Part shown: positions 317 to 51,648 of the stretch, one piece after another | How positions within the stretch are numbered: the first letter of the stretch is position 1 | How the letters are laid out: each line of letters starts with the position of its first letter | Source of the DNA: Cyanidioschyzon merolae | Lineage: Eukaryota | Length of the DNA: 64,000 nucleotides | Direction: 5' to 3' (one strand) | NCBI GenBank assembly: GCA_000091205.1 | Contig: AP006490.2 | Notes under the pieces: model-generated | Databases searched by the model: none | What the model saw: only the letters and a program-made list of their open reading frames with translations | Told to the model about the DNA's origin: nothing | Made by a program: the position numbers and the translations under genes

Positions 317-1237
317 TCAAAGCGAGCGGAAACGTTTCTGACTTGGCGTACGGCGCCGAGTGCGCAACCACTGCCAGTCCAGCGTTGGCAGAAGCGTGCA
401 CAAGGCATCTTCTAGTCGCGGTTGATGACCATGATCTAAACGCCACCAGTACTCGACGACGTTCCAAAACACGAGTGGTGACACCTGTGCCATTTTCGCT
501 GGTCGCAAATTCTCTCTATGTTCAGGAGGCATGCCGTAGACCTCCCGAATGATTTCCCGCAGCACATCCACAGGCAGACTGCGCACATGGGTGTCTTCGT
601 GCATTGCCGTGCGTGCGCCCATCTTGGGATACTGCACGATCCAAAAGCGAGACGCATTCCCGGAAGCACCAGTGTCAGCGTGGTCGGACTCCTCGCGTAC
701 CACGTGATATGAGCGTGCGAGTGCCGCTCGGTACCGATCCGCCGCTCGTACCTCCTGGTCGTGTTCAGTGCGCGCTTCACGCAGCGCTCTGCGAAACGCC
801 TGTGCTTCCCGAGCACTCCCCGCTGAGCCCGATAACGCGTTTACGAGTTGCGTTCCCAGTGCAGCAGTCGCCTCAGCGGGTTGAATCGCTGCATCCGTTG
901 CCAGTTGTTTCGCACCCCGGGTGCCAACAGGTCGCTTTCTATTTCTGGACGCAGTGTTCGTGTTCGTGCTCGGTCTTCGTCGATGGTGTGGCGTCTCAGG
1001 CACAGTGCTTTCCAGCAGAATCGTATCCAGGGGCTGAATATCCGCCGCAGTCTCCACTAACCGCGGTGGAACGCCAGCCCGCAGACGCTGACATGCAACG
1101 GGTACAGCGAACACCTGCTCAAGCCGCTGTCGCAGAGCCTCCAGACCGTGCTCGCCGGTCAAGTCGACCTCGTCGAGCACCTCCGCACGACCGGTACCCA
1201 CGTGCCGCACACATACACGAGCACAGTTGCGAGACAT
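317..1237 (-). CDS. hypothetical protein (306 aa ORF, no recognisable domain)
   Basis: Long GC-rich ORF on the minus strand. The overlapping plus-strand ORF is Pro/Arg-rich and looks spurious. No motif recognised. Confidence 0.3.
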   Translation of the reverse strand: MSRNCARVCVRHVGTGRAEVLDEVDLTGEHGLEALRQRLEQVFAVPVACQRLRAGVPPRLVETAADIQPLDTILLESTVPETPHHRRRPSTNTNTASRNRKRPVGTRGAKQLATDAAIQPAEATAALGTQLVNALSGSAGSAREAQAFRRALREARTEHDQEVRAADRYRAALARSYHVVREESDHADTGASGNASRFWIVQYPKMGARTAMHEDTHVRSLPVDVLREIIREVYGMPPEHRENLRPAKMAQVSPLVFWNVVEYWWRLDHGHQPRLEDALCTLLPTLDWQWLRTRRRTPSQKRFRSL

Positions 1238-1482
1238 AGACTAAGAAATGAGTGGCGATACGGAGTAGCCGGTCAGGGCGCCACACGGACCATTGGTGCG
1301 TCAGCGTGTGGTCGATTTGCGGCCGCGTTCGTATCGCTGGTGTTGCGCTATGCGCCGACTCCAGGCTTTCGCTCGCTCCTTACTGGGCATTGTCGATACC
1401 TACATACGTACAGACGTACGAACAAATCGTAGACTCGGTGGAGTTGACGCGTTGACGGACTGGCGAACGACGGACGAGACGT

Positions 1483-2100
1483 ATGGCCTGTGCGCAAACC
1501 ATGTCTCTTTTGGTTGAAGACGAGGAGACCGGCCACGCTGACAAGGAAGGTCAAATCAGCGGGGCGCGTGTTCGGAAGGTGGTGCCAGCGCCCTGGTGTC
1601 GCAACCCGTTGGTCGAGATTCTGGTGATTTACAACGCCGACTCGACACTCGTGGGAGAGGTTCGATATTTTTTGCAAAAGGTGCTATTTCATAACTACTG
1701 CGCTGCTTGTGTGCTGACGCACGGACGGCGTAGCGAGAAGCCCGAGTGGGTCGCGCTCAAGTCCGGGCAGCACGACTGGGGTTCCAGGGTTCGCCTCCGG
1801 AACGTCCACCGAGACGAGATAGGACCAGAGGCCCGAAAGGTCGCCGGCAAACATCTGCCTTGTGTGCTGGGACGACTGGAGAACGGGTCGTACTTGTTGC
1901 TGCTCACGCGCGAGGAGCTCGAGCTCTGTAACGGCCACGTGGGCGGGTTCCGGGAGCGCCTCAGCGAAACCCTGGTCCGGCACGGTCTCTTTGTCTGGCT
2001 GGATGGCACTACAGGGGACGCGACCTTAACCAATGGTGCCTGCAAGATGGTCGCGGAGCACCTCGAGAATACGAATGCGACTGTAACGCATTCTCGATAG
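1483..2100 (+). CDS. hypothetical protein (205 aa)
   Basis: Uninterrupted ORF with plausible composition. No family recognised by eye. Confidence 0.3.
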   Translation: MACAQTMSLLVEDEETGHADKEGQISGARVRKVVPAPWCRNPLVEILVIYNADSTLVGEVRYFLQKVLFHNYCAACVLTHGRRSEKPEWVALKSGQHDWGSRVRLRNVHRDEIGPEARKVAGKHLPCVLGRLENGSYLLLLTREELELCNGHVGGFRERLSETLVRHGLFVWLDGTTGDATLTNGACKMVAEHLENTNATVTHSR

Positions 2101-2982
2101 GGATGCTAGTCTGTGGTATATTGGTTGTGTGTTTGAATTTCACTGCATCCGAGCAGAAGCTCCCGGATGCGTCCGTGTTACGGGCAACCAGGACAAAAAC
2201 CCGGATTCTTCCTCGAATGCTTCCACTGTTGACGGGCCCAGTAGAGTTTTCCGGTAAGGAGCAGACAGCGGCGACATGCCGGCACCGTCCGCGTGCCGGC
2301 CTGAGCGCAAAACTCGCATCCAGACCGAACCGTTTTTGGCGGTAAGATGCGGATGTTTGCCCGATGCAAGGTACGGTTGCATGCCCCTTGAAGTGCTTTC
2401 TCGTGCGAATGCCACATTTATGTTCGTGAACACGATTGCTCATCATGTTGTTGGATACGGAGATCGATATAGCAATCAGACAGGAAGGATCCATACGAAC
2501 GGCCTGCGCGGTGCATTTGAAATCTCTTTTTTCAATCCATTATCGGCGTTGTTTGAACGCCGCCCCATACCACGCTGATTTAGCTGCTCCTTAAACCCCA
2601 GAGTACCTCAATTGTGGACCCGCTCTTGCAGTGAACGCTGGCGCACCTATTCTTGCGGTAGTCATTCGACCGCGGCGCTGAACAACGTTCCGAATGGCGC
2701 AGCGTGCCACGCCCGTGATAACTCCCGCTTCTGGGGTTCTGTGCAGTCCTGGGGCTCCCAGACTCGTAGCGTATTATTCTTGTCTATGCACGGCGGGTCC
2801 GGGTTCCCGTGCGCATCCCAGGATATTGCACTGGTTTGACGCTTGGGAACGTGTGCTCCCGACGCAAGGCGCCTCAGACTCGCATCGACTCGGTTTACGG
2901 CAGGGGCTCCTGCGCAAAGCCTTCATGCTTCGATACGCAACGATCTTGACACTTCGAAGCGCTATGATGAGCGAAGCACCCG

Positions 2983-3309
2983 TTGTACGCAGTTTTGCTG
3001 CGTCGTTCCGTGCAGGCCTCTGACGCACCTGTTTGCGTAGCAGCGGTCAAACGTGGAACGTCAGCAGACGAAAACTGCCCTGACGCATCGATTATACGCA
3101 GTTTTGCTGCGTCGTTCCGTGCAGGCCTCTGACGCACCTGTTTGCATAGCAGCGGTCAAACGTGGAACGTCAGCAGACGAAAACTGCCCTGACGCATCCA
3201 TTGTACGCAGTTTTGCTGCGTCGTTCCGTGCAGGCCTCTGACGCACCTGTTTGCATAGCAGCGGTCAAACGTGGAACGTCAGCAAACGAAAACTGCCCAG
3301 TATCAAGCC
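2983..3309. repeat. Tandem repeat, 109-bp unit x3 (copies start 2983, 3092, 3201)
   Basis: Direct inspection shows the unit ttgtacgcagttttgctgcgtcgttccgtgcaggcctctgacgcacctgtttgc(g/a)tagcagcggtcaaacgtggaacgtcagcagacgaaaactgccctgacgcatc repeated with only a few substitutions. The six-frame ORFs repeat the peptide RSFAASFRAGL. Confidence 0.9.
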
Positions 3310-6318: not shown

Positions 6319-8332
6319 AAAGAATCCATAAGATATAAAGTTTCCATACATTTGATTCGAAGGCTGACCAAGAGATGCGCATGGACATAGAATCATGTAC
6401 GCTTCTAACTGCGAATGTCGTGCGCTCAACAAAAATTCTGTCCATTCCGTACGGAAACCCGAACGCTCATTCCATTAGGAATTGATTTCGTCTCAGTCAG
6501 TGAAAGCCCATCCAGGAGAAACGATTCATCTCTAAATGGATACTATAAGAATACCCATGCAACGATGCTGGTGAAGAAGAGCTAAACGAGCACGACGAAG
6601 ATGCCATGCCAAGCAGCGGTACGGTCATGTGCTCGCCAACAAATCGGCAATCGGACAGAACGGATCTGCATTTCATCCTCTTTAAAAAAAGCTCTCTTCG
6701 CGGCTTCTCAATCCCGAATGCTTTTGGCCTGCACTCAGAAAACGTCGCTTTCCACCACACAAAAGCGATCAAGGAGTGCCTGGTTGAGACTGTGATTGAG
6801 CTGCTCTCCGTGGGAGCCCGGGTTCCGAGGTTCAGTCGAGTCAACGGCGTCTCCGCTGTTGACGAAAGCTCTGTTTCGGCTCACGGCTCATTCGACGAGT
6901 CGTTCGCATTCATGGCACCGAGAGCTGCCGGACGGCATTCGGGATGGTGTCGGTTCTTGCTCATGGGAGGCTCGGCGAGCTTCTCCCGCACTCCTGCAGC
7001 GTTTCGAGCATCCGAGGGTAGTAGTTCCGGAAGCGGTGATGTCAGTTGTCCGCATTCCTGTAGCATTTTTTCATCAAAACTTGGTGCAACAAGACAGCTG
7101 ATACTCGGGATCCAAGTCTAACACGGCCTCATCTTAGGATCAGAGATATGCACACACGCTTTCCGAAACCTCAAGAGAAGTAGCTGTACGTGGGTAATCA
7201 GAACGTCTACAGAGCAGGCGCCTGAAAGTATCCAACGAAACATTAAACCCGTATGCGGGTCAATGTCAATTGCTTCATGAAGCGCACCCTGTGGGCGTAG
7301 TACCCCCAACGTACCGGTCTTCGAAAAGCGAGTACTCATCACACAGGGGCCTTGGAATGTCCATGATGGCAAATGACGCGAGCGAGCATCGCCTCGGATC
7401 GTCCAGACCCATCGTGTAGCGCTTGGCTTCGGATCGACGAACGTTGTATCCAACGGATGGTGGGCGCGTCATGCCTGTCCTGCTTGCATCGTACGCTCCT
7501 ACGCTCTGCTGATTAGAGCTCTCCAGCACAGAGCAGACTCCATCCACGAATAGAAGAGGATAATCAATTAGAAACTGATACACAATATGACGGACGACAA
7601 GCCGCCCGGACTTGCGTTATCGAGACAATCGAATGCGAGATTCTCTCTACAGCGTGATCCTAGCAGCAAGCATGCGCACAAGCATTTCCTGAATCGAGAC
7701 TTGGGCGCCTCCAGCTGCATCTCAAAAAGCGTCGTGCTTCCGGAACGTGCAGCGGTATTGTTTCGAGCGAGCATCCCATGTAATGGTGTGGTACGCAGTG
7801 CGGGCAGCATCTGGAAACGCTCAAGACCTCCGTTTCGACCTAACCATTGGCCAGGAGTGCGGGTATTGGATTCTCGCCCGAAGCAAGGCACTCGTATGGC
7901 ACGGTCAGCGATCTAGCAAGGCTGCGATACCGTCCATATGGATCGTAAATAACTTTCCTGGGCTATTGGTGAACGATCGTGAAAGCCCATGATTCGATGC
8001 TACTTGGCATACTGCGCAGCCTCTGATGCGCGGCTCCCGGATCACTGGTGGAAAGATGGGTAGTAACGTCCATCGTTGCACATCCACAGGCATCTCTCTG
8101 TGTCTCTCTAATGCAAGACTCTTGGATTCCTGTTGAAAAAAAGGGCGTTGGCGTCTGTCGCTGTACAAAAACCGGCATCTCAGTGCGAGTGCCGCTGCCC
8201 TCAGACTGCTGCGACCGCGAGTCATCGCAGCGCCGCTCTGAACCTTGATCAGATGCTTTCACCAAGCGAACCCAGTGCTCTTTGCATCCGCCTTGTTAAA
8301 AAAAGGTCATCAGGGTTGGCACAACAAGTTCG

Positions 8333-11370: not shown

Positions 11371-11562
11371 ATTGCTCGCTTATCGCGTGCGCTACGCTGT
11401 CGACGGACAACGTACCAGGTTTTTTCGTCGTTCCAAACAGGTTCTGGATCTCGATGTGGTAACGCAATATCTTTGCCAGAATAAATACAGGACGCGTGTC
11501 CACGCAGCGCCTCCAGCTAAACGAAAGCGAGTTCCGGGCCCAGGTGCGTACGCCGCAGACGG

Positions 11563-11722
11563 ACCGGAATCCTTCTACGAGGACTCGAAACTCGCAAGTG
11601 ACTGTTTGATGGAGCTTCTCGGTGATCCGCGGCGGAGTGAGCTCTTCATCGCCTTGACTGCAGCAGCGGAAAGCGGATGGGACTTTGTCGCGCTGGCTGC
11701 GCGATCGGCGAAGCCTGTGCTC
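11563..11722 (+). repeat. Dispersed duplicate (about 95% identity, 160 bp) of an internal trehalase coding segment (trehalase nt 17330-17491)
   Basis: Direct DNA comparison: accggaatccttctacgaggactcgaaact(c/t)gcaagtgactgtt(t/c)gatgga(g/a)cttctcggtgatccgcggcggagtgagctcttcatcgccttgactgcagcagcggaaagcggatgggactttt(c)gtcgcgctggctgcgcga(t/c)cggcgaagc(c/a)tgtgctc. It encodes the trehalase AESGWDF motif. It is not part of an intact gene here. Confidence 0.85.
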
Positions 11723-11819
11723 ACACACCAACAACGCCGCTCTAAAGTCGAACGACGTCGGGCGTGTACAGTAGTGGCAGCAACCGCGCCCTCGACAAGA
11801 CGTCTCCAACTGACGCGCA

Positions 11820-14270
11820 GACGCCTCCCCGTCTTATTGGACCGGCCACCGATTACTGCTTCCAACTTTTTCTCATATAGTTCCACTTTGAGAGGTTGCC
11901 GCACAAAATTCTCTCTTGTCAGCGCTGGAGGTCTTCTTTCCAGCACCGCACATCTCCTGATATTGATAGTGGCATTAAAGTCTCGATTCACAAACTCCAT
12001 ACGCCTCTTGCCATCATTGGTTGTACTTACTAGTGCAAGTGGCCCTCACACTTTTGCCCTCCTTTCCATTTGCTCCTCCGTCAGCGGTCTATACTTCTTT
12101 ACATCTTCAGGGCTCCTCTGGCACTTTTCCATCTCGACCCTCTGAAGTGTACAACCCAGCTCGTGGTGTGTATAAGATGTTCGGAACTCATCTATCGGTA
12201 TTGTAACGAAACGCCGTGCGCACTCCTTGTACACCCTCGTCGTTGGAGCTGGCGTAGCTCCTTTCTTGGGCGCTCAGCGCCCTGCTCCGTACGCTACTAC
12301 CAGCCTTTGGCTCTCGTCCTCCTTCAGGGCGTTCAACTCATTGAAAAAGTTCGCGAGCACGCGCTGCCTCCCACCGTATAGACTCATTCGCAGACGAGCC
12401 CGCCGGGGCTTTGTATACTCCTCCCGTAGCGCCTCCCGATGAGGAACACGAACTTCCATGACTTTCCGAGAAGCTTGAAAGTGTGCTCCGCGGCCCGTCA
12501 CCTCGCTCAAAGCTTCCAGGTGATCCTTCATTCCTGCATCCCATGCAGGAATTTTCTTCCTCGCATTCATGACTCCCGATTCTCGATAGTATCTTGCTCT
12601 CGGGAACCTCAAAAGACGCATGTCTTTCTGACGCAAGGAACCGTCAGTACTATCTTCCGCACGCTACGCTGCGCGATGGTTATGATACTCGTATTCTCAG
12701 GGTCCGCGCCAACGACAAAGTCGTTACCCTGCACTTTCTGCGTCGCAGGACCCGCCTCCTTCTCATCTTCCTGCTTCACCGCGTCAACGACAAGATCGTT
12801 ATCCTCCACCTCCTGCGTCGCAGGATCCGCCGCTTTGTTTTCTGCATCCTTCGTCACGGGCGAAGCCGAGAGCGGGACTGAACGATCTTTCTTCAACCGC
12901 CGATAGTGTACACACAAGGCTACTCCATCGGTTTCGATCAACCCAGTGAATACCTTTTGTTTGCTCATTTTGAGCCGTTTGAAATTGAAGATGTTCTTCC
13001 AGTACGTCTCCAGGTTTTCACCGATGAACTCTTCCCTGTTAACATCGAACTCGGGAATGATCTCCCTCATGATGCCATAAAGGATTCTGGAGTCGATAGT
13101 CACAAAATGTGACTTGAAGTTGCACAACGGAACGACACTGAAGCGCTTACCCACTAGGGCAGCCTTCCGTCTCTCCCACTCTTCATTTTTCTCTCACTCA
13201 GCTTCATCTCTGCCTTGCGTTTGAGTTCTCGGTCCAAAATCACGAAATACCGCAGGACGAGGCGATAGTATCTTTCCTTATCTTTTTCAACTCTGATATC
13301 TTTTCTGTTGGATTAACCAACCCCAGTACCGCACGATGCTCTTGTATAACCGCGCGGATGACGGAATCCTCATTCGTGCTCTTGTTTGACGCCTTCTTGT
13401 CGACGACTTCGACCTCATCTTCATGCTTACGATCTTTCGTGATGCCATTGATAATCGCCCATTTTCCATTGCGAGATAGGCTCTGGTAGAGTGCAACCAC
13501 GGCGCGTATCATGAAACGTTCGAGGTTCGCTGTCAAATGGTTTTTCAGATTCGTGAGGTACTTCATCGCCCCATATGTGTAAATATCCCCGTCACCCTTG
13601 TATCGAGTACCATTGAAGCTGTAAAAGGGATGTTTTTCGTGGAGGGCATGCATTCGCTCGTTTTCCCTCCGCGCTTCCCCTGTAACAAGCATCAGCTGAC
13701 GAATAAAGGTCATGTCGAAAAACTCGTCCGGAATTTCGACTGTTTCCATATGCGTCACGTCGCGATACATCTACCTCGCCAAATGCATCAGTCCTGACGA
13801 CGCCTTGACAATACTCTCGGAGTCTGACGCAACACGTTTTTCGATAGCGTCTCGCAACGTTTCCCTGTTGGGATCCTTGATATGTTTAAGAAGACAGCCT
13901 TTAACCACCATCTCGTCGTACAGTTGTCTTTTTTGCCGGCTTCGACGTAGGACCTCACCTTTTGCTTCTTTTTCTCTTCCTTTTCTTCTGGAATCGGCAC
14001 TGTTTTTTGTTTTTTTTTCTGGCAGCCGGCGACACTGGGCCTCCAAGATCGTGGACTTGCTTTTTCATATCTTTCCTTTTTTTGTTTTTTTTGAAAAGGA
14101 ACGCTCTTTGGACGCTTGTGGTATATGCTGCGAAAAAACACTTGACTAGACTTGTTTGAAGTTTTAAACAAAAATGAGCTGAAAGACTGTACTTTGCTAC
14201 GAACTGAACGGAAATCCAACTTTTTACAGCTGAACAACACGCTTCTGATCGAGATCACGTTTCCCTTCAA
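11820..14270 (-). mobile_element. Degenerate Fanzor/TnpB-like (IS605 OrfB-family RuvC nuclease) gene, about 2.4 kb. It has a Lys/Arg-rich N-terminus, is broken by in-frame stops and frame changes, and carries a conserved 3' noncoding block.
   Basis: The minus-strand pieces are co-linear with TnpB. (i) K/R-rich N-terminal pieces (13788-14270 and 13771-14046). (ii) 13240-13770, in frame with the preceding piece but separated from it by one TAG. (iii) 12609-13154 in another frame, containing [15 protein letters not shown] (a possible RuvC-I). (iv) 12274-12636, 12046-12234 and 11575-12000, all in one frame and separated only by TGA codons. Together these read LYGGRQRV...MYKECARRFVTIPIDEFRTSYTHHELGCTL, which matches the TnpB consensus YKaewyGr.vv.vdP.yTSq.Cs.CG. 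Then comes EFVNRDFNATINIRRCAVL, which matches RuvC-III DRDxNAAxNIxRR. I checked ATG GAG TTT GTG AAT CGA GAC TTT AAT GCC ACT ATC AAT ATC AGG AGA by reverse-complementing 11953-12000. The 3' end at 11820-11829 is revcomp GGGAGGCGTC, shared with the other copies. Confidence 0.5.
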
Positions 14271-16235
14271 CGGCGAGATACATGTCGTGTCTCATGTCTG
14301 CCTGATCTCCCAGGTGCGCTCACCGATCGATGAAGGTCACGTGTCCGACACCCCGCCTTGGCACTTGCGTGTTCGCATCGCGCAGCAGCAAAAATCAGGT
14401 GTCCTAAATCGAAAACTCACGTGGAGTAGTCTCGTGCTATAGGCTATGTCGCTGGTGCTGACGCTACTGCCCATCGCATTACCGCCCTGACAGACATGGA
14501 GCTGTTGGGGCCTGGCACGATACCTCTCGACGCTTCTATCAAATGCGTAGCGTTCTCTGCGGCTTACGCTTGTGTGGATAAGATACGCATCACTCTACTC
14601 AATAGGAATTTTGTTAGTTTTATTGATCGTAAACAAACAAGGTACGGTAGGATTCCTGAACACGGATACAAGTTTATTTCCTATGCTTGTAATGCATGCT
14701 GCACGGACGCTGGAATAAGGAACTGACATGAATTTTGCTTCTTTCCGGCGTCATGGGCTGGTACTGATGACCGTTCAAGTCATTTTCCATGCTATCGTCA
14801 TTGCCCAAGTTATGGTGCCTGCTACTGTCTCGGACCCGGTGATCTTGACAGAGGCATAGCACACAGGTAGCGTCCATATCTGCCACGACGTTTGAGCCTT
14901 GCATCTCGCCTGGCACGATCGAGGAACCCGATAAAAGCACATACTGTATTCTTATCTACTCTATAAGATTAGTTTCAAGAGCCTAACCTGTATGTAGTTG
15001 TGCAAGCACCAAACCGTAAACTTATCTGCACCCCCTACGCCCCCCGCCATTCCTTAAGCAAGCGGATGTTCGTTAGCCACCTGCTGATTTTTCCCTTCCA
15101 GTAGTAAAACTGCTCAAGAGACGGATTTTTTCTCTATCCCTTACCGTTCAATGGAAAGAAAACGTTTCACGACCATGTAGGGTAAATTAATATCCAATCA
15201 CAGACGTCTCCTAGCCTTTTCCACCGGCCCCCTGCTATCGGTTGCAGCTTCTCTTTGTACAATTCGACCCTGAGAGGATGTCCCAGAAAGGTGGACCGCG
15301 TCAGCTCCGCCGGTCGCGCCTCCATCACCATTCGTCTTCTGATATTGATGAGGTTTTGTCGAAAACGCTAGTGATAGAGCTGAGGTCAAGAAACGATCCA
15401 TCTTGACTGGCGCTATCAAACGATCGGTACCAGAAGCTGGAGGCTGCAGCCGGCACCAGGTGCTCTGGTGACGGCATGCTGGCCGTGAATAGTGCGCGAC
15501 GAAGCCGCACAGCATGCTACGGTTTCCTAGTACGTAGGTAAAACAAGCGCGTACCCTAAACGTTCATATTCAGGGCGATGACTAGTCGCCGCCACGGTAT
15601 CCTGGGAAAAATATGCGAGTGCACTTTGGTTGCTCGACTATCGAGCACCATCACGAGTATGGGTGCACTTCACTACACGGTTTCCAACGATCATTGAATC
15701 CACCATCATCCAAAAGTGACGAAAAGTCACAAGCGCACCGGCCTCGTACCTCCAAGTCAGGACTTGCCCATCAGCACGCACACAAATTTCGTGACCCGCT
15801 GCGCATTCACCAAACGAAAGGAAGCACGCGTTTCTTCATCCAGGGATAGAGGGTTCCAAATTCCTTCAGAGACTGCCGATGCTTCGCCCGAACCCAGACC
15901 ATCAGCTGCGGTATGCCCACGAGCATAAACCGGATGCCTGCGATTATCTGCGTCATCAATGTAAATCCTGCCCACACCAGTACCTCAAATGTGTGTCGTT
16001 CGGACACGACACAAGCTCGAAAACCAAGCCGTATGGGGCCTGTCGCAAGCGCCAGTGGCACACCAGGTTGCCAAGCTCACAAATGCCAAAGCACACCACG
16101 CCTATCCAAAAAAAGGCGGCAGCGTCAGCAGCGGAAAGCACCAGCTCTATTGATCAAGAAGCGCATCGATGCGCTTCTCGATCGACGAAACGCGAGCTCC
16201 GCGAGACGCATTCGCCATCAGTTGACGTATAGAAC

Positions 16236-18332
16236 GTGTGGTACTATGCAACTGTTCAGTACCGTAACCTGAGCACCATGACATTGAAAGTCATAGAAGC
16301 GTATGTGCATATGGCTTTTCGTCTGGGCGCGTTGGCGCCTGCATTTCCGAGTTCGGTTGTATACTGTGCCGCCAACTGCGCTGAAACTAGTGCCGGCTGT
16401 GAAAAGTCGCTGCTCGCAGTCGTTCAGCGACTCCGCATTTTCGCTGACTCAAAACACTTTGTGGATCTGCCTCTGCTACCTGGGCGAATACCGGAGCGGA
16501 TCATAGAGTACTGGGACGCTGAGTTCGGTCGCCGCGTTGTTGAGGAGCCGCTGGCGGGCCCAGGCGAAGCAACCAGCGGGCTCCGCGAGGCCGAGCGCGA
16601 GCCCCCTGTGCCCACCTTTCGGCTAGCACGTGTCGAGGGACCTGACACCGACTTCGAGGAGGTACGTCGCTTTCTGTTAGAGCACTTTGACTACGCGCCT
16701 GGTGGCGACTTGCTTGCCTGGATCCCGCGGGACTTGCCGCAGTTGGAGCTGGACCCTGAACCTGGAACGACAGCGACTGGTTCGCCACCGTTGCTGCACC
16801 AGATCTGGCGCTGGATGAAAGCACAGGATGTCGATGCGGGAAACTGGCTCATGGATATGGTCGCACGCTGGCGAAAACTCGGTCGCGAGACCTCGCCGAT
16901 GGTGTTCAGAGAACCTGAACGCTTCAGTCTGCTGCCCCTGAAACATCCATTCATCGTGGCTGGTGGTCGATTCCGCGAGTGCTACTACTGGGATACCTAC
17001 TTCATCGTTCGCGGCCTTCTGGTCTGCGGTATGTGGGAGACTGCGCGCTGCTGCGTTGAGAATCTTCTCGATCTGGTAGAGCAGTTCGGCTTTGTGCCCA
17101 ACGGTGCCCGCATCTACTATCTGAATCGTACCCAACCACCACTACTTTCGGATATGGTGCGCTGCATTGCAGAGCATGCACATGCCGGATGGGACGTGAT
17201 GACATTTTTGGGGCGAGCGTTGCCGCTTCTGGAGCGTGAATACAACTTCATGATGGAGCAACGGGCGGTAAAGATGCGCGCAGGGGGAACCCTAAATCGT
17301 TACCATGCGCCCGCAGCCGAAGGACCGCGACCGGAATCCTTCTACGAGGACTCGAAACTTGCAAGTGACTGTTCGATGGAACTTCTCGGTGATCCGCGGC
17401 GGAGTGAGCTCTTCATCGCCTTGACTGCAGCAGCGGAAAGCGGATGGGACTTTTCGTCGCGCTGGCTGCGCGACCGGCGAAGCATGTGCTCCATCCGAAC
17501 GCAGTTGATTATCCCTGTGTGTTTCAACAGTTTCATGCTTCGCATGGAACGCAATCTCGCTTTTCTCTACCAATGGTATATCAGCGGTAGCCGACCGGAA
17601 ACGGAAAAAGGTAGCATTTTCGAACAGCGGTTACCTGGAAATGAGGAGGTCCCCAATGACCCAGTGACAAGAGACTTGCTTGATCGAGTCCAACAGCGGG
17701 TCTCTACGATGCAAAAGTATTTATACGTACCAAGCCGGGATCAATGGATCGACTACGACCTGGAGGCCGATACAACGACCCTGCAAACGGTTGCAGATTG
17801 GCGGCAGACGGTGAGTTCGAGCAACTTTTTCCCGCTCTGGAGCGGCATCCTCGAGCATATCGAATCGGAACAAGCGGCTTCCATCGCGCGTGGCGTGCTC
17901 CAGTCGTTCGAGGAGAGTGGTCTCCTGCAAAACGGAGGCGTTGTTGCAACATTGGTGACCGATTCGGGTCAACAGTGGGATTACCCGAACGCGTGGCCAC
18001 CCGTGCAACTCCTGCTGCACGAAGCGTTTGCGTCGCTAGCGACGCAGTTTTCCGCGAATGAGCAAATCTCCAACCGAGCTCGCGAACTTTCTTTGCAGAT
18101 AGCCATCCGATTTCTGCGTTCTGTATACCAGGGCTGGCTTCGGAGTGGTGATCTTTTCGAGAAGTATCACGCGGAAAAGGTCGGAGAGAGTGGCAACGGC
18201 GGTGAATACGTTCCCCAGGTTGGATTCGGATGGACAATTGGGGTGAGCCTTGCGCTCTTGTCCAGTGTATGGCAGCTTGATCGAAGCCTGCTCGCACAAG
18301 TCTGGCAGAGGGTATCCGATGAAGCCACATAA
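16236..18332 (+). CDS. Neutral trehalase (glycoside hydrolase family 37), 698 aa from the first ATG. The probable start is the signal-like Met at about 16311 (MAFRLGALAPAFPSS).
   Basis: GH37 signatures: YCAANCA...LLAVVQRLRIFADSKHFVD, GGRFRECYYWDTYF, GPRPESFYEDSKLA, AESGWDFSSRW, QWDYPNAWPP. One continuous ORF with no introns. Confidence 0.9.
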   Translation: MWYYATVQYRNLSTMTLKVIEAYVHMAFRLGALAPAFPSSVVYCAANCAETSAGCEKSLLAVVQRLRIFADSKHFVDLPLLPGRIPERIIEYWDAEFGRRVVEEPLAGPGEATSGLREAEREPPVPTFRLARVEGPDTDFEEVRRFLLEHFDYAPGGDLLAWIPRDLPQLELDPEPGTTATGSPPLLHQIWRWMKAQDVDAGNWLMDMVARWRKLGRETSPMVFREPERFSLLPLKHPFIVAGGRFRECYYWDTYFIVRGLLVCGMWETARCCVENLLDLVEQFGFVPNGARIYYLNRTQPPLLSDMVRCIAEHAHAGWDVMTFLGRALPLLEREYNFMMEQRAVKMRAGGTLNRYHAPAAEGPRPESFYEDSKLASDCSMELLGDPRRSELFIALTAAAESGWDFSSRWLRDRRSMCSIRTQLIIPVCFNSFMLRMERNLAFLYQWYISGSRPETEKGSIFEQRLPGNEEVPNDPVTRDLLDRVQQRVSTMQKYLYVPSRDQWIDYDLEADTTTLQTVADWRQTVSSSNFFPLWSGILEHIESEQAASIARGVLQSFEESGLLQNGGVVATLVTDSGQQWDYPNAWPPVQLLLHEAFASLATQFSANEQISNRARELSLQIAIRFLRSVYQGWLRSGDLFEKYHAEKVGESGNGGEYVPQVGFGWTIGVSLALLSSVWQLDRSLLAQVWQRVSDEAT

Positions 18333-24245: not shown

Positions 24246-26554
24246 GGATTGTCGCCGACTTGCGTCTCCACTTCCGGAAACACACGAACGTCGTCCAGTC
24301 CCGACTTGGACGAAGCGCTCTTTCGAACCGAACGTGATACGTATGAAAGCGCTTTTGAACGGTATCCGGTGCCTGCACTTGCTTCAAGCCACGAACGGAA
24401 GCTGTTTTGGGATGCTTTGCACCCGTTCCGCCACGTCGGGAGATGTAGCTCGCCCAGCGCCACGCTTCTCGACGGGCTGCTTCCCACACGTGTACCCAGC
24501 TGACTGCGTTCGGTATGCTCCAGCATATCCTGGACAGTGGTGAAGCGGGTTCGCCAATGGACCCTGACGGTGAGGTGCGGAACAAGCGACACGCTCTCGG
24601 ATACCAGTGAGCGTCGTGCAGTGGGGAATCCCTGGTCATGGTAAACGATCCTCTATTCTCGGGAAAGATTCTAGCTGGTAGGCATTTAACCATGGCGCTT
24701 GCCATCGATGGGTGCAGTGAGAAAAACATCGAATCCTGCGAGTGAAGTCTTCTTTGCAGGCACGATACGCGTGTTCTGTGCTGAGATGCCCGCGTTTGCT
24801 GGTGCTATGTCCGGTGCTGGACTAGGATTCAACGCTTGGAAGCTCGTTTGGTGAATGAAACGCTCATTCTCGATAGTCAGACTGGAGCGTGATTCACGTG
24901 ACCCAGAGGTCTCCGAAGCACATGAGGGCTCGCTTCCCTGGGTATAGGCAGCGGTTGTATATCCCGGGCATTGCTGGTCAGATTCGTGGATCAATCATCA
25001 AAAGATATCTCGCCTTGACGCTATTTGGAAGCAGTGCTTCGCGCGGCTACCCGCACAGCATCGCGCCTGTGTTTTTGATCGACGGAACCCCCAGAGGAAC
25101 CGACGACGCGCTATTGTACGCGAAAGGTATCGACATAAGTGAAAACGCCCATCATGCCGCATCCGACCTCCAAGTTAAGCTAGTCACTGAACATGCTTCC
25201 CTTCGGAGTGCATGCCCAGTTCATATGTCACTCGGGGTGCTGTGTGCCTGCTGCTGTGCCCGGCAATGCACGGAGAGAAGACGCAGCGGCGGGTAGAATC
25301 GTGTGCATGAGCAATCTCGAAGAAACGAAATGCGCACTAGCAACTCGAGAACCTGGTGTTTGAATGGATATGGTGAGCGATGAAAGGGGAAAACATTCCC
25401 TGTATATTCGACCATTTACGTCTAAGAGGCAGGTCCTGCGAGCCGGATGAGTGTTCTGGGCCAGCGCTTTGTGTGCTTCTGCACTGGCGGGTGCTGAGCC
25501 AATACATGGCTGCTTGTCCGAAACGCATTTCATTCTGGGAATCGTAGCTGGTAAGCTGCGTAGGGGCGTCGCTATGGTCGCAGTGGACTCCTAGCACATC
25601 GCTTCGCGCCTCCACAGGCAGTGCTTCCGTATGCGCAGGATTCAGGCTCCCAGAATGATAATGCATCCCGATTTTGTGACTAGTGAAGCGTGCCTCGAGC
25701 CGACGCTCCCGAGAGTATTTCGAAGCCGTTTCGTCTCCGTACTGAATCCGCACCGGTTGTATGGGCGTTATTGCGGGTGCTCAAGACAGCCTCGGCAGTT
25801 TTTTGTCGCAGGAAATGACCAGAATCTCCGAGAACGAGTATAAATAATCTAACGTGGATGTAGCGTCAAGAATGATCTGCGCGTTCCTGGATGTCACTAT
25901 CCATCGCGGAATCTAGCATCCCTAGTCCATACAAGCATTCTGTCCAATAAACGATAATCTTCGATCAGCGCCGAGTACCCGCCTTGCGGAACCCGCAATA
26001 GCGCCTAATTCGCTGATGCAGGTGCATCATAGAGACAGGACGGCTTTGCCGTACCACAGAGGGCGTCGGCTCAAGCAATGCTTCACCTGAAACGGAGTCG
26101 GAGTACCTGATCATTCTGGGAGCCTCCAAATTGTACAGACAGACCGACTGCCTGCGGCAGCGCGAGGCGATGTATACTAGGAGAGCACCACGACCAGGAC
26201 GACGTCGAGACGGATTCTCCCCAATGCGAGCCCCAGAATATACTGCGTATCGGAGAGTCTGCTCAGATTTCACTACAACACCAGGCACTGGTGGCGGAGG
26301 CACATGAAGCACAAGTCTAGCAGAAACGTGCGGCTCGCGGCAACTTCCACCTAGACGGTAATCGTTCACCAATATGAAAACCTTTACCCCCTTTCAACGC
26401 TTATCATACAAGCCGAACGACATTGTTATCTCGTCACTAGTTAGCGCTTGCCTTCTCTTCTACCATGTATTCGAGCCTGCTTATCGATCCGGATGCTTCT
26501 GTGCTGTAGTAGCGCTGCATCCTTCGTCGCCGCTTCGCGGCGATCCTTCAAGCT

Positions 26555-28539: not shown

Positions 28540-28690
28540 TGTCGGCAAACGCTGTGGCGCCAGCGTAGCACGCGTGGTGACGAGAGCGAACCTAGTGGGG
28601 CAACCGCTCCTGATCGAGGTGTGCCAGGAGAAGCTGAAACCGATAGCATGCGGTCGGTCGAAAAACAAAAGGCTGGGAGGCGTCTCCATG
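28540..28690 (+). mobile_element. Solo fragment homologous to the 3' end / 3' noncoding block of the Fanzor-like element family
   Basis: ggggcaaccgctcctgatcgaggtgtgccaggagaagctgaaaccgatagcatgcggtcggtcgaaaaacaaaaggctgggaggcgtc aligns with the blocks at 34880-34976, 47590-47671 and revcomp 11820-11900. It ends in the shared GGGAGGCGTC. It lies in a convergent intergenic spacer. Confidence 0.5.
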
Positions 28691-34210: not shown

Positions 34211-34460
34211 GTACGAAGCGTGTTTCACCAATGCGGGGGCGTGTCGGTCTCGCATGGAGCGCGAGCTGAAGTGCGACTGAGCTCCATGTTTTGACGAAAG
34301 ACCCAGACACGACCGCACGGACTTTATTGTGCATGAGACCCAAACTCACGGCTGTACCGACGTTAACCGCGTGTTCTTTGGAGAGTCACGTTGCACGGAG
34401 CGGAGATGCTGCATGGGCTAGCCAGCCGTCTTTATAGCCTTTTATTTCGGTTGTGTTTCA

Positions 34461-35052
34461 CACCCAGGTGCGAGCAATGAAATGCGATTTCGCGGTTCAT
34501 AGCAGGTACGTTCCAAGTGCGTTCTTTTTCAAGAATAAAAAATCCAAGGGAGAGGTATGCGCATGGAATCGGGGATCTTAGAGGCCTGTCAGCATCGGGT
34601 GACTGAAAAAAGACGAGGAAAAAATCCTCGTCTTGCCGCGCATTGCGCAAGGAAGAGCAAATACGGAAGAAGAAGAGTGGTGATAGTCGAGAAACGGAAT
34701 TCGCCCGACGCTACGTTGCCGAGACTCTAGTGGAAGACAAAGCACGAGTGCTAGCCATTTTCGCAATGGTGCGTTCCACCTGCGTCAATGCATGCAAGGA
34801 GTTCATCAATCGACACTTCAGTGGCACCATCAACATAAGACGATGTGTCGTGCTGAAGACGGGACACGAGAAGCTGATGTGATACAACTTCGTTGGACAG
34901 CCTCTCAGTCTCGAAGCATGCCTGGATAAACTGAAGCCGATAGCAGGCCGCTGGTCAAAATAGGCTGGGAGGCGTCACTGGATGGTTATCGGTTTACCGT
35001 CCATGGTCGTGGGTCAGTTTTTTTGTTTCATCGACATGTACATATAATCTGC
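34461..35052 (+). mobile_element. Internally deleted (non-autonomous) derivative of the Fanzor-like element: 5' end-like block, C-terminal RuvC-III fragment, conserved 3' noncoding block
   Basis: It aligns along its length with the copy at 47174-47745, with the 5' block and the last roughly 75 bp (up to the ATGTACATAT terminus) shared only between these two. The internal ORF 34643-34882 encodes ...RSTCVNACKEFINRHFSGTINIRRCVVL (compare EFVNRDFNATINIRRCAVL of the long copy). GGGAGGCGTC is at 34967-34976. Confidence 0.55.
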
Positions 35053-47173: not shown

Positions 47174-47745
47174 CACCTCTAGGTGCACGTCATCAAATGC
47201 GTTTTCGCGGTATATAGGAGATGCATTCGAAGTGCGTTCATTTGAACAAATAAAAAATCCAAGGGAAAGGTAAACGCATAAAAGTTAGGGAACCTGGAGG
47301 GCCGGTGTCGTTGGGTCCCACAAAAAACACGAATAAAATCCCCGTCTCGTGGACGATGGAGAGACGAAGAGCGGAGATAGGCGGGGAGAGGGCATTCGCC
47401 TGACGGGACGATGACGAGACTGTGGTGGCCTAGAGGGCACGAGCTCCAGCAATTCTTGTATTGATGAGTTCCGCCAGATGCAATAAAAGTACGGCGTTCG
47501 TGAACGGAGAATTCAACGCCTCCATCGATACAAGATGATGTGCTGTGCCGAAGACGAGACCCGGGGAGCTAACACGAGCTACCTTTATGGGGCAGCCTCT
47601 CAGGCTCGTACTCTGCCTGGATAAACGGAAACCAGGAGCAGTCGGCCGGTTAAAAAAGGCCGGGAGGCGTCTGTGCATGGGTATGTACTTACGATCCGTG
47701 GTCGTGGGACATTTTTTGTTTCATTGACATGTACATATTCTAAGA
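47174..47745 (+). mobile_element. Second non-autonomous / degenerate copy of the Fanzor-like element (5' block, degenerate RuvC-III region with a stop, 3' noncoding block)
   Basis: Shares cacc.c.aggtgc...aaatgcg.tttcgcgg...aataaaaaatccaaggga.aggta with the 34461 copy. 47497-47535 encodes FVNGEFNASIDTR*C, a decayed EFVNRDFNATINIRRC. GGGAGGCGTC is at 47662-47671. Terminus ...tggtcgtgggacattttttgtttcattgacatgtacatat. Confidence 0.5.
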
Positions 47746-50700
47746 ACTGTGAGTTCCGGAACACCTGTACTATCACACTCTTATGTTTTTGTTTGATTTT
47801 CTGCAGGTATGCAAAGAAAGGGTTTGTATCCCGTAAATTGGAGAAATGTTGCGTCAAATCCTGGTGCTGGCACTGCTTGCTTGGGAAGAGCAGCTCAAGT
47901 CGTAAATGCAAGTCCTTCTCCGGTGAGGAGGTGGATGAACCATCGTTCTTATTGCGTTTGCCCGAAACGTCTTGCACCCAAAACATAACTTCATCACGGC
48001 TTTTTTCACGATCTTCGTATCGTCAATCCACTCCACTCCATATGCTCTATTAGAGAGGCGATCAAGCAAGCCGTAGGATGCGAGAATTCCGCCTCATTGA
48101 CACCAACGGTCGTGAAGCGACATGGATGGACGAGGTACAAAGCGCGAGTATGCGCTAAAAAACGCCGAGCGCTCGACAACACACTCTCGATTTCGAAGTG
48201 AAACACAAACTCGGACTATAGAAGAGACTTTCGCTCATAGAGGAAGAAATGGTAGACCTGTATATAGGTTCTCAAAGAGTGAGGGTAAATCGGTGTTCGT
48301 AAAGAAGGGACAAGCGAGTATTCCGACAAAATCTGCGCTGAAGGCGATGCTACCTTGTGGTCGCCTAGGTCACCAGAACGGACGGGTTCGTCAGTATTTC
48401 ATCCTCCGTCAAAGCAAATTTCATGGATTCTCCATCTGACATTTTTCTGTCCCGGTCGTAGACGATGACGCTTTCCGTCACACAAAAAAGCAGTGACGGA
48501 GTACGCAGTTGAGATTGTCGTTGAGCTCGTGCTCGTGCCGGCCTAGGCTGCCTGGTTCAACCCAGTCGATGGCGTCTTATCTGATGTAAAACTCTGTATT
48601 TACGTTTACGGGCCCATAGACGGGTCGTTCGCATCAGCGACACCGTTCTCTGACAAACTGTTCCTCGACAAGTCGTTCTCTACTTTCATCGGCACTCCAC
48701 TAATGTGATGCTCCTCTGTTCTTGCGCTTGAGCGAGTGAACAGGTGTGCTACAGTTCGTGAGGATTCTCGCGGTGGAAAGGTGACGAAAAAGTGCTTAAA
48801 TGATGATCGATGCGCTCATGGAAAAGGCGAATTCGAGCCCCACAGTCCACCCGGTACGAGTGCAACACGTAAAAAAGTAGGTATATCGAGTATAGCGAGC
48901 ATATTCGCGCCGTCCAGTCTGATAAAGAACAAGGAGAAGGAACGCCAGACTAAGAGGAAGAAAATTTCCCCAGAAAGTCGACGAGGGACCATAACGTAAA
49001 ACCGTCGAAGAGGGACAATCTGCCTGAAACGATGATCAGGTGCTTCGCTTTGAACCACGCCGTCGGGAAGAATTTTCCGAAACGCAAGTTTCAGGAAATC
49101 GTTAGGTGTTGCATAGCTTCTTCCAAGAACCGGGTTTCGCTCACGTTGCCCTCGAGTTTCAAGCACTTGGTTACGCAAATGTTTGTACGGGTCCCAGACG
49201 CACTGCTGCTAGATATCCACATTCCTCTGGAATTTTTCGATCAAACCCGAGTACGACCATATACCTGATACTCAGGACAGAAGATGAAATGCGGCCAGAT
49301 CGTAGTATCCACGCTTTGCATACTCGCGTTCCAGAATGCCTTGATGCTTCGCCACTCCTAGGCACTGATCGGAGCATCCACAGCACAGGTACGAACCTGA
49401 GTCTAGCAATCTCAAGAACTGTGTGCGTGCCAATGCCGAGCGTTTCATGGGGCACCTCCTGTGGGCGTTGTGCGCTCACCGCACTGGTCCAGAAAAACGG
49501 GTACTTACGGTAGGGATTCTCGGGATACGCGTGCGAGAAAAAAACGAATCCTTGGCGGCGGAAGCGATCCAGGCGGTCAGGCGCTCGGACTCGATGTCGC
49601 ATTGATCGCGAGATTCGCTTCAGATCGCCCGAGCTCATTGCGTAGCTCTGGGCCTCAGACCGGAGCACATCGTATCCAAATGATGCTGGAAACGTGACCC
49701 ATGCAGCGCTTTCATCTTGCGCATCTATGTGTTCCAGAATAGAGCCCTCTAGCGCAAAGCGAATCGTCTTTACGAATACGTCCGCGATAGCCTCCCCGAC
49801 GATCTATCCAAAGGTGTCCCGACTGGTCTGATCGATGTCCATCATTTCCTAGAAGAAGCTTCTGTTCTGTAGAGGATTTCTGAATCAGTGAGCTACGGCT
49901 GGTCTCTGCGAGCGACTCTGAAGCAAGCGAACAACTTGGCGAAGAGCATTGGCAGAGCGCGTCCAAGAGCTCTCGTTTACGGGGAGGAAATGAGACGCAA
50001 TTTACAGTGACGATCGATATAGACGGCGTATCAAGCAGCATGAACTGGTGGAAACGTTTATCTGCGTCGATCAACGAGGCTCATTTCCAGTCTTTCTAGA
50101 CAGATGACGAGAATGATTCTATGGTGTGTATGGATGCAGTGCTGGAGGTTTCCAGGTCCATCGCAACCCCTCCAAGTCAAGAGGATAGAGTCAAAGATTC
50201 CAACGGGTAGCAGATGAAGCTGCTCAATTTTTCAAAATGCTCTGTATGCTAGGGAGTCGGACGTGATGGACACCAGCAGACACACCAGCAAATAGAATAA
50301 CGGCTGCAGGGCCCATGTCGAAGCTCCAACCACCATACCGAGTAGAGGCGCATCCTTGATACGCCTCGTTCAGAGCGTACATGAGCGTCCAAATGATGCA
50401 TGCGGACGACCATTCGCAGGTGTATGTGACACCGCGCTGGATCGCCGACAGTGTTGTTTTTTTTTTGCTGAAGCCAGCATCGTCCTTTGGTCAATTTTTT
50501 TCCAACGAATTCGAGTACGGAATACCCGATATGTCGCATGGTTTCATGGCGGCCAATGGCACTAAACGTGCCGTACACCACAAATACCTCATTCCTGCAC
50601 CTTCGACGAGCGTGTCCAACGAGCGCATCAATCGGATCTGTTGGATACCTATCGATGCATTCGGAATGGCGTACGCGTATCATGAGCACGGGCACACGCT

Positions 50701-51648
50701 GGACCCGGTACAGAGGGAGAAGCAAGTGGAATAGACGCATATGTACGAGGTGGTGTCCGGGAAGCGGACCGCCCTTCACCTGGCGAGGAAATCCATGGAA
50801 TGTGAGACTCGCTCTGGTTTGATGCCAGCAGCGGCTATCCGCGGAATCAGTCTCTGCACCGAGACTTGAACGCCTCGATCAACGTTCGGAAGTGTCTTGG
50901 GCTCCTCGACTTCGAGCGGTTTTGTCGAGCGAACATTCGACGGAATCCTTTCGTACTCAACAGGGGCTTGTGCTCCTATGCAGAAGCGTTGCGATTCGAG
51001 AAATCAGTGGCCGAGACAGAGGGCATCGGGTTCTCCTAAGCGCCACGGCACTGGCATGGTACGGCGCAGCAATCAACAAGTCCGAAACGCCGTCTCAGTT
51101 CACGGGGAACGCTTTTCGTGGGCTAAAATATCCGGGTTACGCCTTGCACTCCTAGATGCGGATCGTTACCATGACAGAAATTGCATCCAGAGGCGCGTAT
51201 GCCTCTGATATGACCGCCACGTCCTCGTCATGATACACGCTCGCGCAGACACTCGAGTCGACACTGCTTCACGCGGCCCTAGGATTGGCTTCCTTCTGCT
51301 TGACGTGATCAAGTGCGCGGGAGCAATTACATCCTGACGCCTTTTAACGATGAAAGAGTCGCACCATGCAGTGCGCAGTTGCTCCATGTTGTTCCTGGCA
51401 AGGGTACTCTCGAGTTCCCAGTGTCCATACAACGTCCAGTACAACTGCTGCAGCGAGCTCTGTGTGCTCGAAGCACTGTCGTGGGCACTTGCGACGTCTA
51501 CCTCGTTGGGCACGGCTCCACCGTACCCACACCGCACTACGAAACGCGTTTCATTTTTCCTCGGACACTGTCTTGACCAGTCGCTAGATCCACCTCTAAT
51601 CTTTACACTTGAAACCAGTCTTTAGTCCTGGCATGGAGCGACCCCACT

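Follow-up and report, generated by a model that had tools for sequence, protein, structure and literature searches.

A 64,000-nucleotide stretch of the Cyanidioschyzon merolae genome (contig AP006490.2 of assembly GCA_000091205.1; hereafter the window) contains on its minus strand, at 11735–14332, a locus that sequence comparison identifies with high confidence as a degenerate, dead copy of CMe-1A, a Fanzor1 transposable element. CMe-1A was described from C. merolae by Bao & Jurka (2013, Mob DNA 4:12; PMC3627910) as a family of ~150 copies with ~80% identity to their consensus, no terminal inverted repeats (TIRs) and an undetermined target-site duplication (TSD), whose open reading frame (ORF) occupies a single exon of 734 codons (entry ‘734 (1)’ of Additional file 1). 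The first 635 bp of the consensus are shared with the repeat TE-N2_CMe, and phylogenetic analysis in the same study placed CMe-1 in the Fanzor1 clade. An earlier account of this DNA, made from the letters alone (the sequence-only reading), had recognised a decaying TnpB-like/Fanzor copy, a description borne out by the defects relative to the consensus and by the profile and fold comparisons given below. It had also ranked a Fanzor family as the most notable content of the window, which is unsupported, as the family was published in 2013; family, host and consensus are already known and the window copy adds nothing new to them.

Positions 641–3169 of the 3169-bp CMe-1A consensus (Additional file 2 of PMC3627910) align with window positions 11735–14340 at 85.9% identity across 2518 aligned columns (blastn and global alignment), so that identity to CMe-1A is at least 80% over most of the length of the consensus. 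Within the copy, identity is 87.7% in the 3′ 1 kb and 84.7% in the remainder. The published 734-residue CMe-1 protein and the protein pieces encoded in the window are collinear, and a protein stitched from these pieces matched 45 proteins in a large protein collection, the best relative being P0001 (752 residues; E=0, 68% identity over 95% of the stitched query). Scanning metagenome contigs with P0001 yielded 71 loci encoding relatives, to which the window DNA is 79–85% identical, the similarity being confined between ~14319–14332 and ~11722–11770. Because homology in the 71 loci ends at the same two boundaries, the unit is a ~2.6-kb repeat with one ORF, and no second ORF was found within it. 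Similarity at the locus, in peptide as in DNA, lies far above chance. The interval first proposed, 11820–14270, is present as claimed, and the homologous unit proves slightly larger. A repeat search revealed no inverted repeat linking the two ends of the copy, in agreement with the TIR-less structure of CMe-1A, and a search at its ends found no TSD. The unit and its 5′ region are delimited as follows.

11735–14332, minus strand: degenerate CMe-1A Fanzor1 core (consensus 641–3169), delimited by blastn, global alignment and the boundaries in 71 copies.
14069–14332, minus strand: 5′ untranslated/promoter region of the core, aligning to consensus 641–905 and conserved among copies.

The window copy is a pseudogene, unable to encode the nuclease. 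The ORF listing resolves it into six collinear pieces of 62–181 residues, split by stops or frame changes. Codon-by-codon alignment to the 734-codon consensus ORF, confirmed with P0001, shows breaks at ten places, comprising five frameshifting indels, four premature stops and the loss of the natural stop. In the following list, indels were placed by alignment to the consensus, and stops and the start codon by codon alignment.

11791–14068, minus strand: remains of the 734-codon Fanzor1 ORF (codon alignment; tblastn with P0001 and the CMe-1 protein).
14066–14068, minus strand: start codon ATG, kept.
13950–14068, minus strand: Lys/Arg-rich N-terminus resembling a nuclear localisation signal (NLS), MKKQVHDLGGPVSPAARKKNKKQCRFQKKRKRKRSKR from the ATG in three-frame translation, broken by the +2 indel and the first −1 indel below.
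~14018, minus strand: indel of +2.
~13958, minus strand: indel of −1.
13771–13773, minus strand: premature stop at codon 99, GAG to TAG.
~13287, minus strand: indel of −1.
~13193, minus strand: indel of −1.
12704–12852, minus strand: two tandem 75-bp units (a 25-residue acidic repeat) in the ORF (repeat and consensus alignment).
~12672, minus strand: indel of −1 just downstream of RuvC-I, adjoining the next stop.
12664–12666, minus strand: premature stop at codon 444, AAG to TAG, beside the frameshift.
12274–12276, minus strand: premature stop at codon 574, TGG to TGA.
12046–12048, minus strand: premature stop at codon 650, CGA to TGA, within the conserved RGLL motif.
11791–11793, minus strand: natural stop lost, TAG to GAG.

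The in-frame TAG and TGA stops announced by the sequence-only reading are found at codons 99, 574 and 650, with a fourth at codon 444. Both frame changes that it reported exist (~13193 and ~12672), but its total of two does not hold, with three more at ~14018, ~13958 and ~13287. The two single-base deletions at ~13287 and ~13193 shift the 32 codons between them to another frame. A further defect is the replacement of Gly by Glu in the DPG motif of RuvC-I. The Lys/Arg-rich N-terminus reads GKKRKTVPSPEEQEKTKKQKREARRQRLQERRQ in the consensus. Between window copy and consensus, 96 codon differences are synonymous and 150 non-synonymous, which we read as divergence under earlier selection mixed with later neutral decay. 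An ORF of at least 680 residues with all motifs survives in only one of 72 related loci, and decay is the rule in the CMe-1A-type family.

Just upstream of RuvC-I, the 25-residue acidic unit (roughly ...EADPATQEVQDNDLVVDA..) varies in copy number between elements, with one unit in the consensus, two in the window copy, where the additional 75-bp unit is an in-frame insertion, and ~4 in P0001 (residues ~385–480).

Assignment of the family to Fanzor1 draws on profile searches, a predicted fold and signature motifs. A profile built from the 45-sequence family alignment matched, among PDB sequences, PpFz1 (9.1e-20), SpuFz1 (8gkh; 1e-12) and GtFz1 (9cer; 1.6e-5) and no other convincing entry, the matches spanning more than 300 residues that include the WED, RuvC-I and RuvC-II/III regions. 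A profile from an alignment of five diverse, intact relatives likewise matched Parasitella parasitica Fanzor1 (9cf0) at 4.3e-14. The breadth of the family is apparent when its profile is run against 1.84 billion cluster representatives: 4849 match at E≤1e-3, and for 543 of them E≤1e-30.

The structure check proposed by the sequence-only reading was made on P0043, a relative 34% identical to the stitched window protein. An AlphaFold2 run with a five-sequence alignment had been too poor for use (predicted local distance difference test, pLDDT, 57.9), and the model of P0043 built with the 45-sequence alignment reached a pLDDT of 90.9 and a predicted template modelling (TM) score of 0.87. Foldseek against the PDB placed SpuFz entries 9ceu and 8gkh at the top (TM 0.69–0.71, E ~1e-18; best match 9ceu, TM 0.71, E 1.9e-18), followed by PpFz and GtFz; Cas12f, other Cas12 proteins and TnpB followed at E 1e-4 to 1e-3 with TM <0.35.

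Signature motifs point in the same direction. Yoon et al. (2023; PMC10711439) describe a TDG motif in the WED domain as characteristic of Fanzor1, and as Fanzor signatures a DPG in RuvC-I and a relocated RuvC-II Glu (Ealt) that shortly precedes the zinc-finger position. Across the 45 sequences of alignment A3, the TDG, DPG, E(FRT) and RD motifs are invariant or nearly so, D303 and G304 of TDG being invariant and the R and D of RuvC-III nearly invariant; the DPG of RuvC-I is thus a property of the family, and the window copy itself reads DPE. The corresponding positions in the window copy are these.

12921–12932, minus strand: TDGV, the WED TDG motif, kept (IETDGV at 12921–12938), aligning with LETDGVGV of PpFz1 and ITTDGASV of SpuFz1.
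12693–12710, minus strand: GADPEN, RuvC-I, catalytic Asp kept and DPG changed to DPE, aligning with MDPGRRD of PpFz1.
12175–12195, minus strand: IDEFRTS, Ealt, Glu kept, aligning with IDEFRTS of PpFz1 and LDEYKTS of SpuFz1.
11968–11988, minus strand: NRDFNAT, RuvC-III, Asp kept, aligning with NRDQAA of PpFz1 and NRDMLS of SpuFz1.

Three-frame translation of 11500–14300 recovers every minus-strand peptide quoted in the sequence-only reading, that is, the Lys/Arg-rich N-terminus, IETDGV, YKECARRFVTIPIDEFRTS (12175–12234) and RDFNATINIRR (~11953–11985). Its choice of the last as RuvC-III agrees with the alignment of NRDFNAT to PpFz1 and SpuFz1; its choice of IETDGV as RuvC-I was mistaken, as this is the WED TDG motif and RuvC-I is the GADPEN segment. 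Collectively, profile, predicted fold and signature motifs identify the CMe-1A family as Fanzor1. Fanzor2 is characterised by a compact, TnpB-like protein and by linkage to an IS607 serine-recombinase TnpA. That alternative, between which and Fanzor1 the sequence-only reading had asked for a choice, was rejected on the basis of a 734-codon ORF with REC insertions, the lack of a second ORF and best structural matches that are all Fanzor1.

The window copy agrees with published CMe-1A in its single ORF, its 3′ end and its lack of TIRs; the extent of its divergence falls within the published range (~80% identity to the consensus), and TE-N2_CMe-like repeats coexist with it in the window (25383–26444). 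It differs in lacking the 635-bp TE-N2_CMe-like 5′ part, adjoining instead a 675-bp module, and in carrying an extra 75-bp in-frame unit and an ORF disrupted at ten places. The solved proteins SpuFz1 (Spizellomyces punctatus; 8GKH, 9CEU–9CEZ), PpFz1 (Parasitella parasitica; 9CF0–3) and GtFz1 (Guillardia theta; 9CER–T) share with the CMe-1 family the overall predicted fold (TM 0.63–0.71 for P0043), TDG in WED, the DPG of RuvC-I, the Glu in D-E-[FY]-x-T-[ST] and the RD of RuvC-III. They are RNA-guided double-stranded DNA endonucleases, bound to omega-RNA in the solved complexes, whereas nuclease activity and an omega-RNA are putative in CMe-1; sequence identity between the two groups is only 14–17%, and the CMe-1 clade is without a CxxC..CxxC zinc ribbon. 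Neither TIRs nor TSDs are recognisable in CMe-1A, in contrast to the SpuFz1 element with its 33-bp TIRs and TA TSDs. TnpB (IS200/IS605, IS607) and Cas12f have in common with the family the RuvC fold and the order RuvC-I, RuvC-II, RuvC-III, and their guide RNA, encoded at the 3′ end of the element, is a possible counterpart of a candidate CMe-1 omega-RNA. Their structural match to the P0043 model is nevertheless weak, as given above, and TnpB has D-hydrophobic-G and the Glu at its canonical position, lacks TDG, an NLS and large REC insertions; the window locus is eukaryotic.

The 3′ end of the element is well defined, in that copies agree as far as ‘...GACTTTCGAACGGCG(TT)’, at window 11733–11735, and diverge beyond it. 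The ORF ends within the element's last ~120 nt, which form the following feature.

11733–11850, minus strand: hairpin-rich 3′ terminal region, candidate omega-RNA scaffold and right end (minimum free energy −52 kcal/mol; stems at 11797–11827 and 11733–11760).

A 3′ omega-RNA is the arrangement that would be expected by analogy with Fanzor1–omega-RNA complexes (8gkh) and with the mapping of right-element RNAs (reRNAs; PMC10711439). Taken together, the comparisons make CMe-1A an old, multi-copy, TIR-less, single-ORF element of a C. merolae-type red alga that encodes a Fanzor1 protein and has neither a transposase of its own nor a recognisable TSD. By extension from work on Fanzor1, the ancestral CMe-1 protein may have acted as a nuclear, omega-RNA-guided RuvC endonuclease. 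Its Lys/Arg-rich segment would have served for nuclear localisation and its predicted catalytic triad would consist of Asp431 (DPG, RuvC-I), Glu603 (VDEFRTS, the relocated ‘alternative’ RuvC-II Glu) and Asp672 (NRD, RuvC-III). Its guide RNA would have been read from the element's structured 3′ end and onward into flanking DNA. The window copy, its ORF destroyed, is decaying neutrally.

Several null results weigh against this picture, both for the protein and for the putative RNA. The test with Pfam PF01385 and PF07282 proposed by the sequence-only reading gave no matches on the pieces or the stitched protein; no Pfam or NCBIfam family rose above threshold for any of the six ORF pieces, nor did any Pfam family for the stitched and consensus proteins. 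For PF07282, E-values ranged over 0.09–0.5, the consensus protein gave E=0.51, and the best relative, P0045, scored 23.4 bits against a cut-off of 26.3. A C4 zinc ribbon is part of the classical Fanzor/TnpB definition, and no CxxC..CxxC ribbon lies between RuvC-II and RuvC-III in CMe-1 or its wider clade; one Cys is conserved in the clade (RGLLWC; alignments A1 and A3) and is absent from CMe-1 itself (RGLLAL). The missing ribbon probably accounts for the failure of PF07282 and of Pfam generally: judging from these alignments, the clade has probably lost it, so that annotation based on hidden Markov models (HMMs) overlooks the clade. On the side of the RNA, RNAalifold returned an empty consensus for 40 aligned 3′ ends (as did ViennaRNA run directly), covariation in the 40 copies was weak and non-significant (score 0.144 against 0.134 in shuffles, 19/500), an Rfam scan of the window had no match, and conservation across copies is no higher at the 3′ end than in the ORF. 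Owing to the empty consensus, the structure was drawn from one copy; with this structure 77.8% of cells in the 40 copies were paired in register, against 40–59% when partners were slid by 1–3 columns, a measure biased by its single-copy origin. No tRNA was detected in a scan of the window.

Three other explanations have to be set against a dead Fanzor1 copy. That the Fanzor similarity is spurious, the locus deriving from an unrelated eukaryotic repeat protein that shares an ‘RDxNA’ motif, would suit the lack of a Pfam match, the missing zinc ribbon and the outcome of phmmer, which found no match for the stitched protein among PDB sequences, where only profiles succeeded. This has, in our judgement, next to no chance of being correct, being refuted by profile matches to three independent Fanzor1 proteins of solved structure, spanning more than 300 residues, and by a full-length fold match (P0043, TM 0.71), with the phylogenetic placement of Bao & Jurka on the same side. 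Equally hard to credit is an intact gene in which unusual small introns or programmed frameshifting still yield a functional Fanzor1, even though the pieces are long and collinear and the codons for the catalytic Asp, Glu and Asp survive. Every stop lies one base from the sense codon of the consensus and P0001, with flanking residues aligning gap-free, and the frame changes are indels of 1–2 nt relative to the consensus and not removable segments, so introns, which the sequence-only reading had allowed as the less likely option, and recoding are untenable and the copy is a pseudogene. The published family ORF is, moreover, single-exon, and the neighbouring genes are uninterrupted.

The remaining alternative accepts the dead ORF and holds that the copy is an RNA gene, its 3′-end omega-RNA serving in trans the Fanzor1 of intact copies with a guide matching its own flank. 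We consider this very unlikely, though somewhat less so than the preceding two. The 3′ 1 kb is closer to the consensus than the rest of the copy, the terminal hairpins are preserved with their pairing register kept across copies, and Fanzor1 reRNAs in another system are abundant small RNAs from non-autonomous elements (PMC10711439). On the other hand, conservation of the 3′ end does not exceed that of the ORF across copies, covariation is non-significant, and most copies of the family are dead. A degenerate, dead CMe-1A copy therefore remains the preferred reading.

The 5′ side of the element is modular. blastn found no match to consensus 1–640 upstream of the copy, where the 635-bp TE-N2_CMe-like part would lie; its place is taken by another repeat.

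14319–14992, minus strand: ~675-bp upstream repeat module in place of the TE-N2_CMe module, 83–90% identical among loci, with no match to consensus 1–650.

This module is joined to the Fanzor core here and at five metagenomic loci (L005, L036, L058, L070 and L073), a TE-N2-type module occurs at seven others (L015, L018, L039, L041, L046, L049 and L071), and an A-rich third module is also found. In different copies, the 2.5-kb Fanzor core is accordingly joined to no fewer than three distinct 5′ modules, each of them a repeat by itself. A 3′ piece of a second Fanzor directly precedes the 675-bp module in L058, L070 and the window; the entire arrangement is therefore a repeat in its own right.

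On the other side, the 161 bp adjoining the Fanzor 3′ end (11562–11722) are a 96% identical, same-strand copy of 17329–17491, an internal piece of the trehalase gene (ORF 16236–18332), and the similarity ends exactly at 11722, 12 nt past the consensus end of the element. The origin of this fragment may lie in break repair, as filler DNA, or in a small segmental duplication. A plus-strand ORF (11372–12145, 257 residues) runs antisense to the 3′ end of the pseudogene and its flank; no protein family supports it, and it most likely arose by chance, the DNA being G+C-rich.

The locus lies, as the sequence-only reading had supposed, among eukaryotic nuclear genes. Neighbouring ORFs are long, uninterrupted and eukaryotic, encoding a CRT-like transporter, trehalase, CIA30, a BRCA2-repeat protein, Raptor, FKBP, IspD and Rpb2, and the G+C content of the window is ~55%. 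Long uninterrupted genes fit the intron-poor nuclear genome of C. merolae. Fanzor1 is also listed in the literature for the oomycetes Phytophthora and Pythium; an oomycete source was rejected once both description and sequence of CMe-1A proved to match. The expectation of several family members in the window was also confirmed, with at least six further Fanzor1 remnants, which include 3′ fragments.

7127–7820, plus strand: Fanzor1 remnant.
15209–15349, minus strand: Fanzor1 remnant.
28577–28663, plus strand: Fanzor1 remnant.
34433–34976, plus strand: Fanzor1 remnant, internally deleted, matching CMe-1A consensus 786–965 and 2903–3081.
47433–47685, plus strand: Fanzor1 remnant.
48987–51058, plus strand: Fanzor1 remnant, near full-length and very divergent (~30% amino acid identity).

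The last was rejected as an intact copy, having no ORF longer than 180 residues. Remnants occur at ~1 per 9 kb in the window, well above the average for 150 copies in a 16.5-Mb genome. The TE-N2_CMe-like repeats at 25383–25944 (minus strand) and 25968–26444 (plus strand) form a head-to-head inverted pair 24 bp apart and are 73–79% identical to CMe-1A consensus positions 5–617.

For annotation, positions 11735–14332, together with six or more further stretches of the window, are to be masked as Fanzor1/CMe-1-type repeats and not treated as genes. The demonstration that Fanzors are RNA-guided nucleases dates from 2023. Interest for specialists lies in a clade without the zinc ribbon on which Pfam's model relies, overlooked by HMM-based annotation, and in interchangeable 5′ modules joined to the Fanzor core in different copies. 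A more far-reaching scenario, which we regard as very unlikely, is that this ribbon-less Fanzor1 branch is still active in the thermo-acidophilic red alga, a few intact copies supplying the nuclease and dead copies, including that in the window, supplying flank-matching omega-RNAs in trans, with the junction to the trehalase fragment as a scar of such activity. Were this so, the omega-RNAs of dead copies would affect genome stability around them, for example in the flank carrying the 161-bp trehalase fragment.

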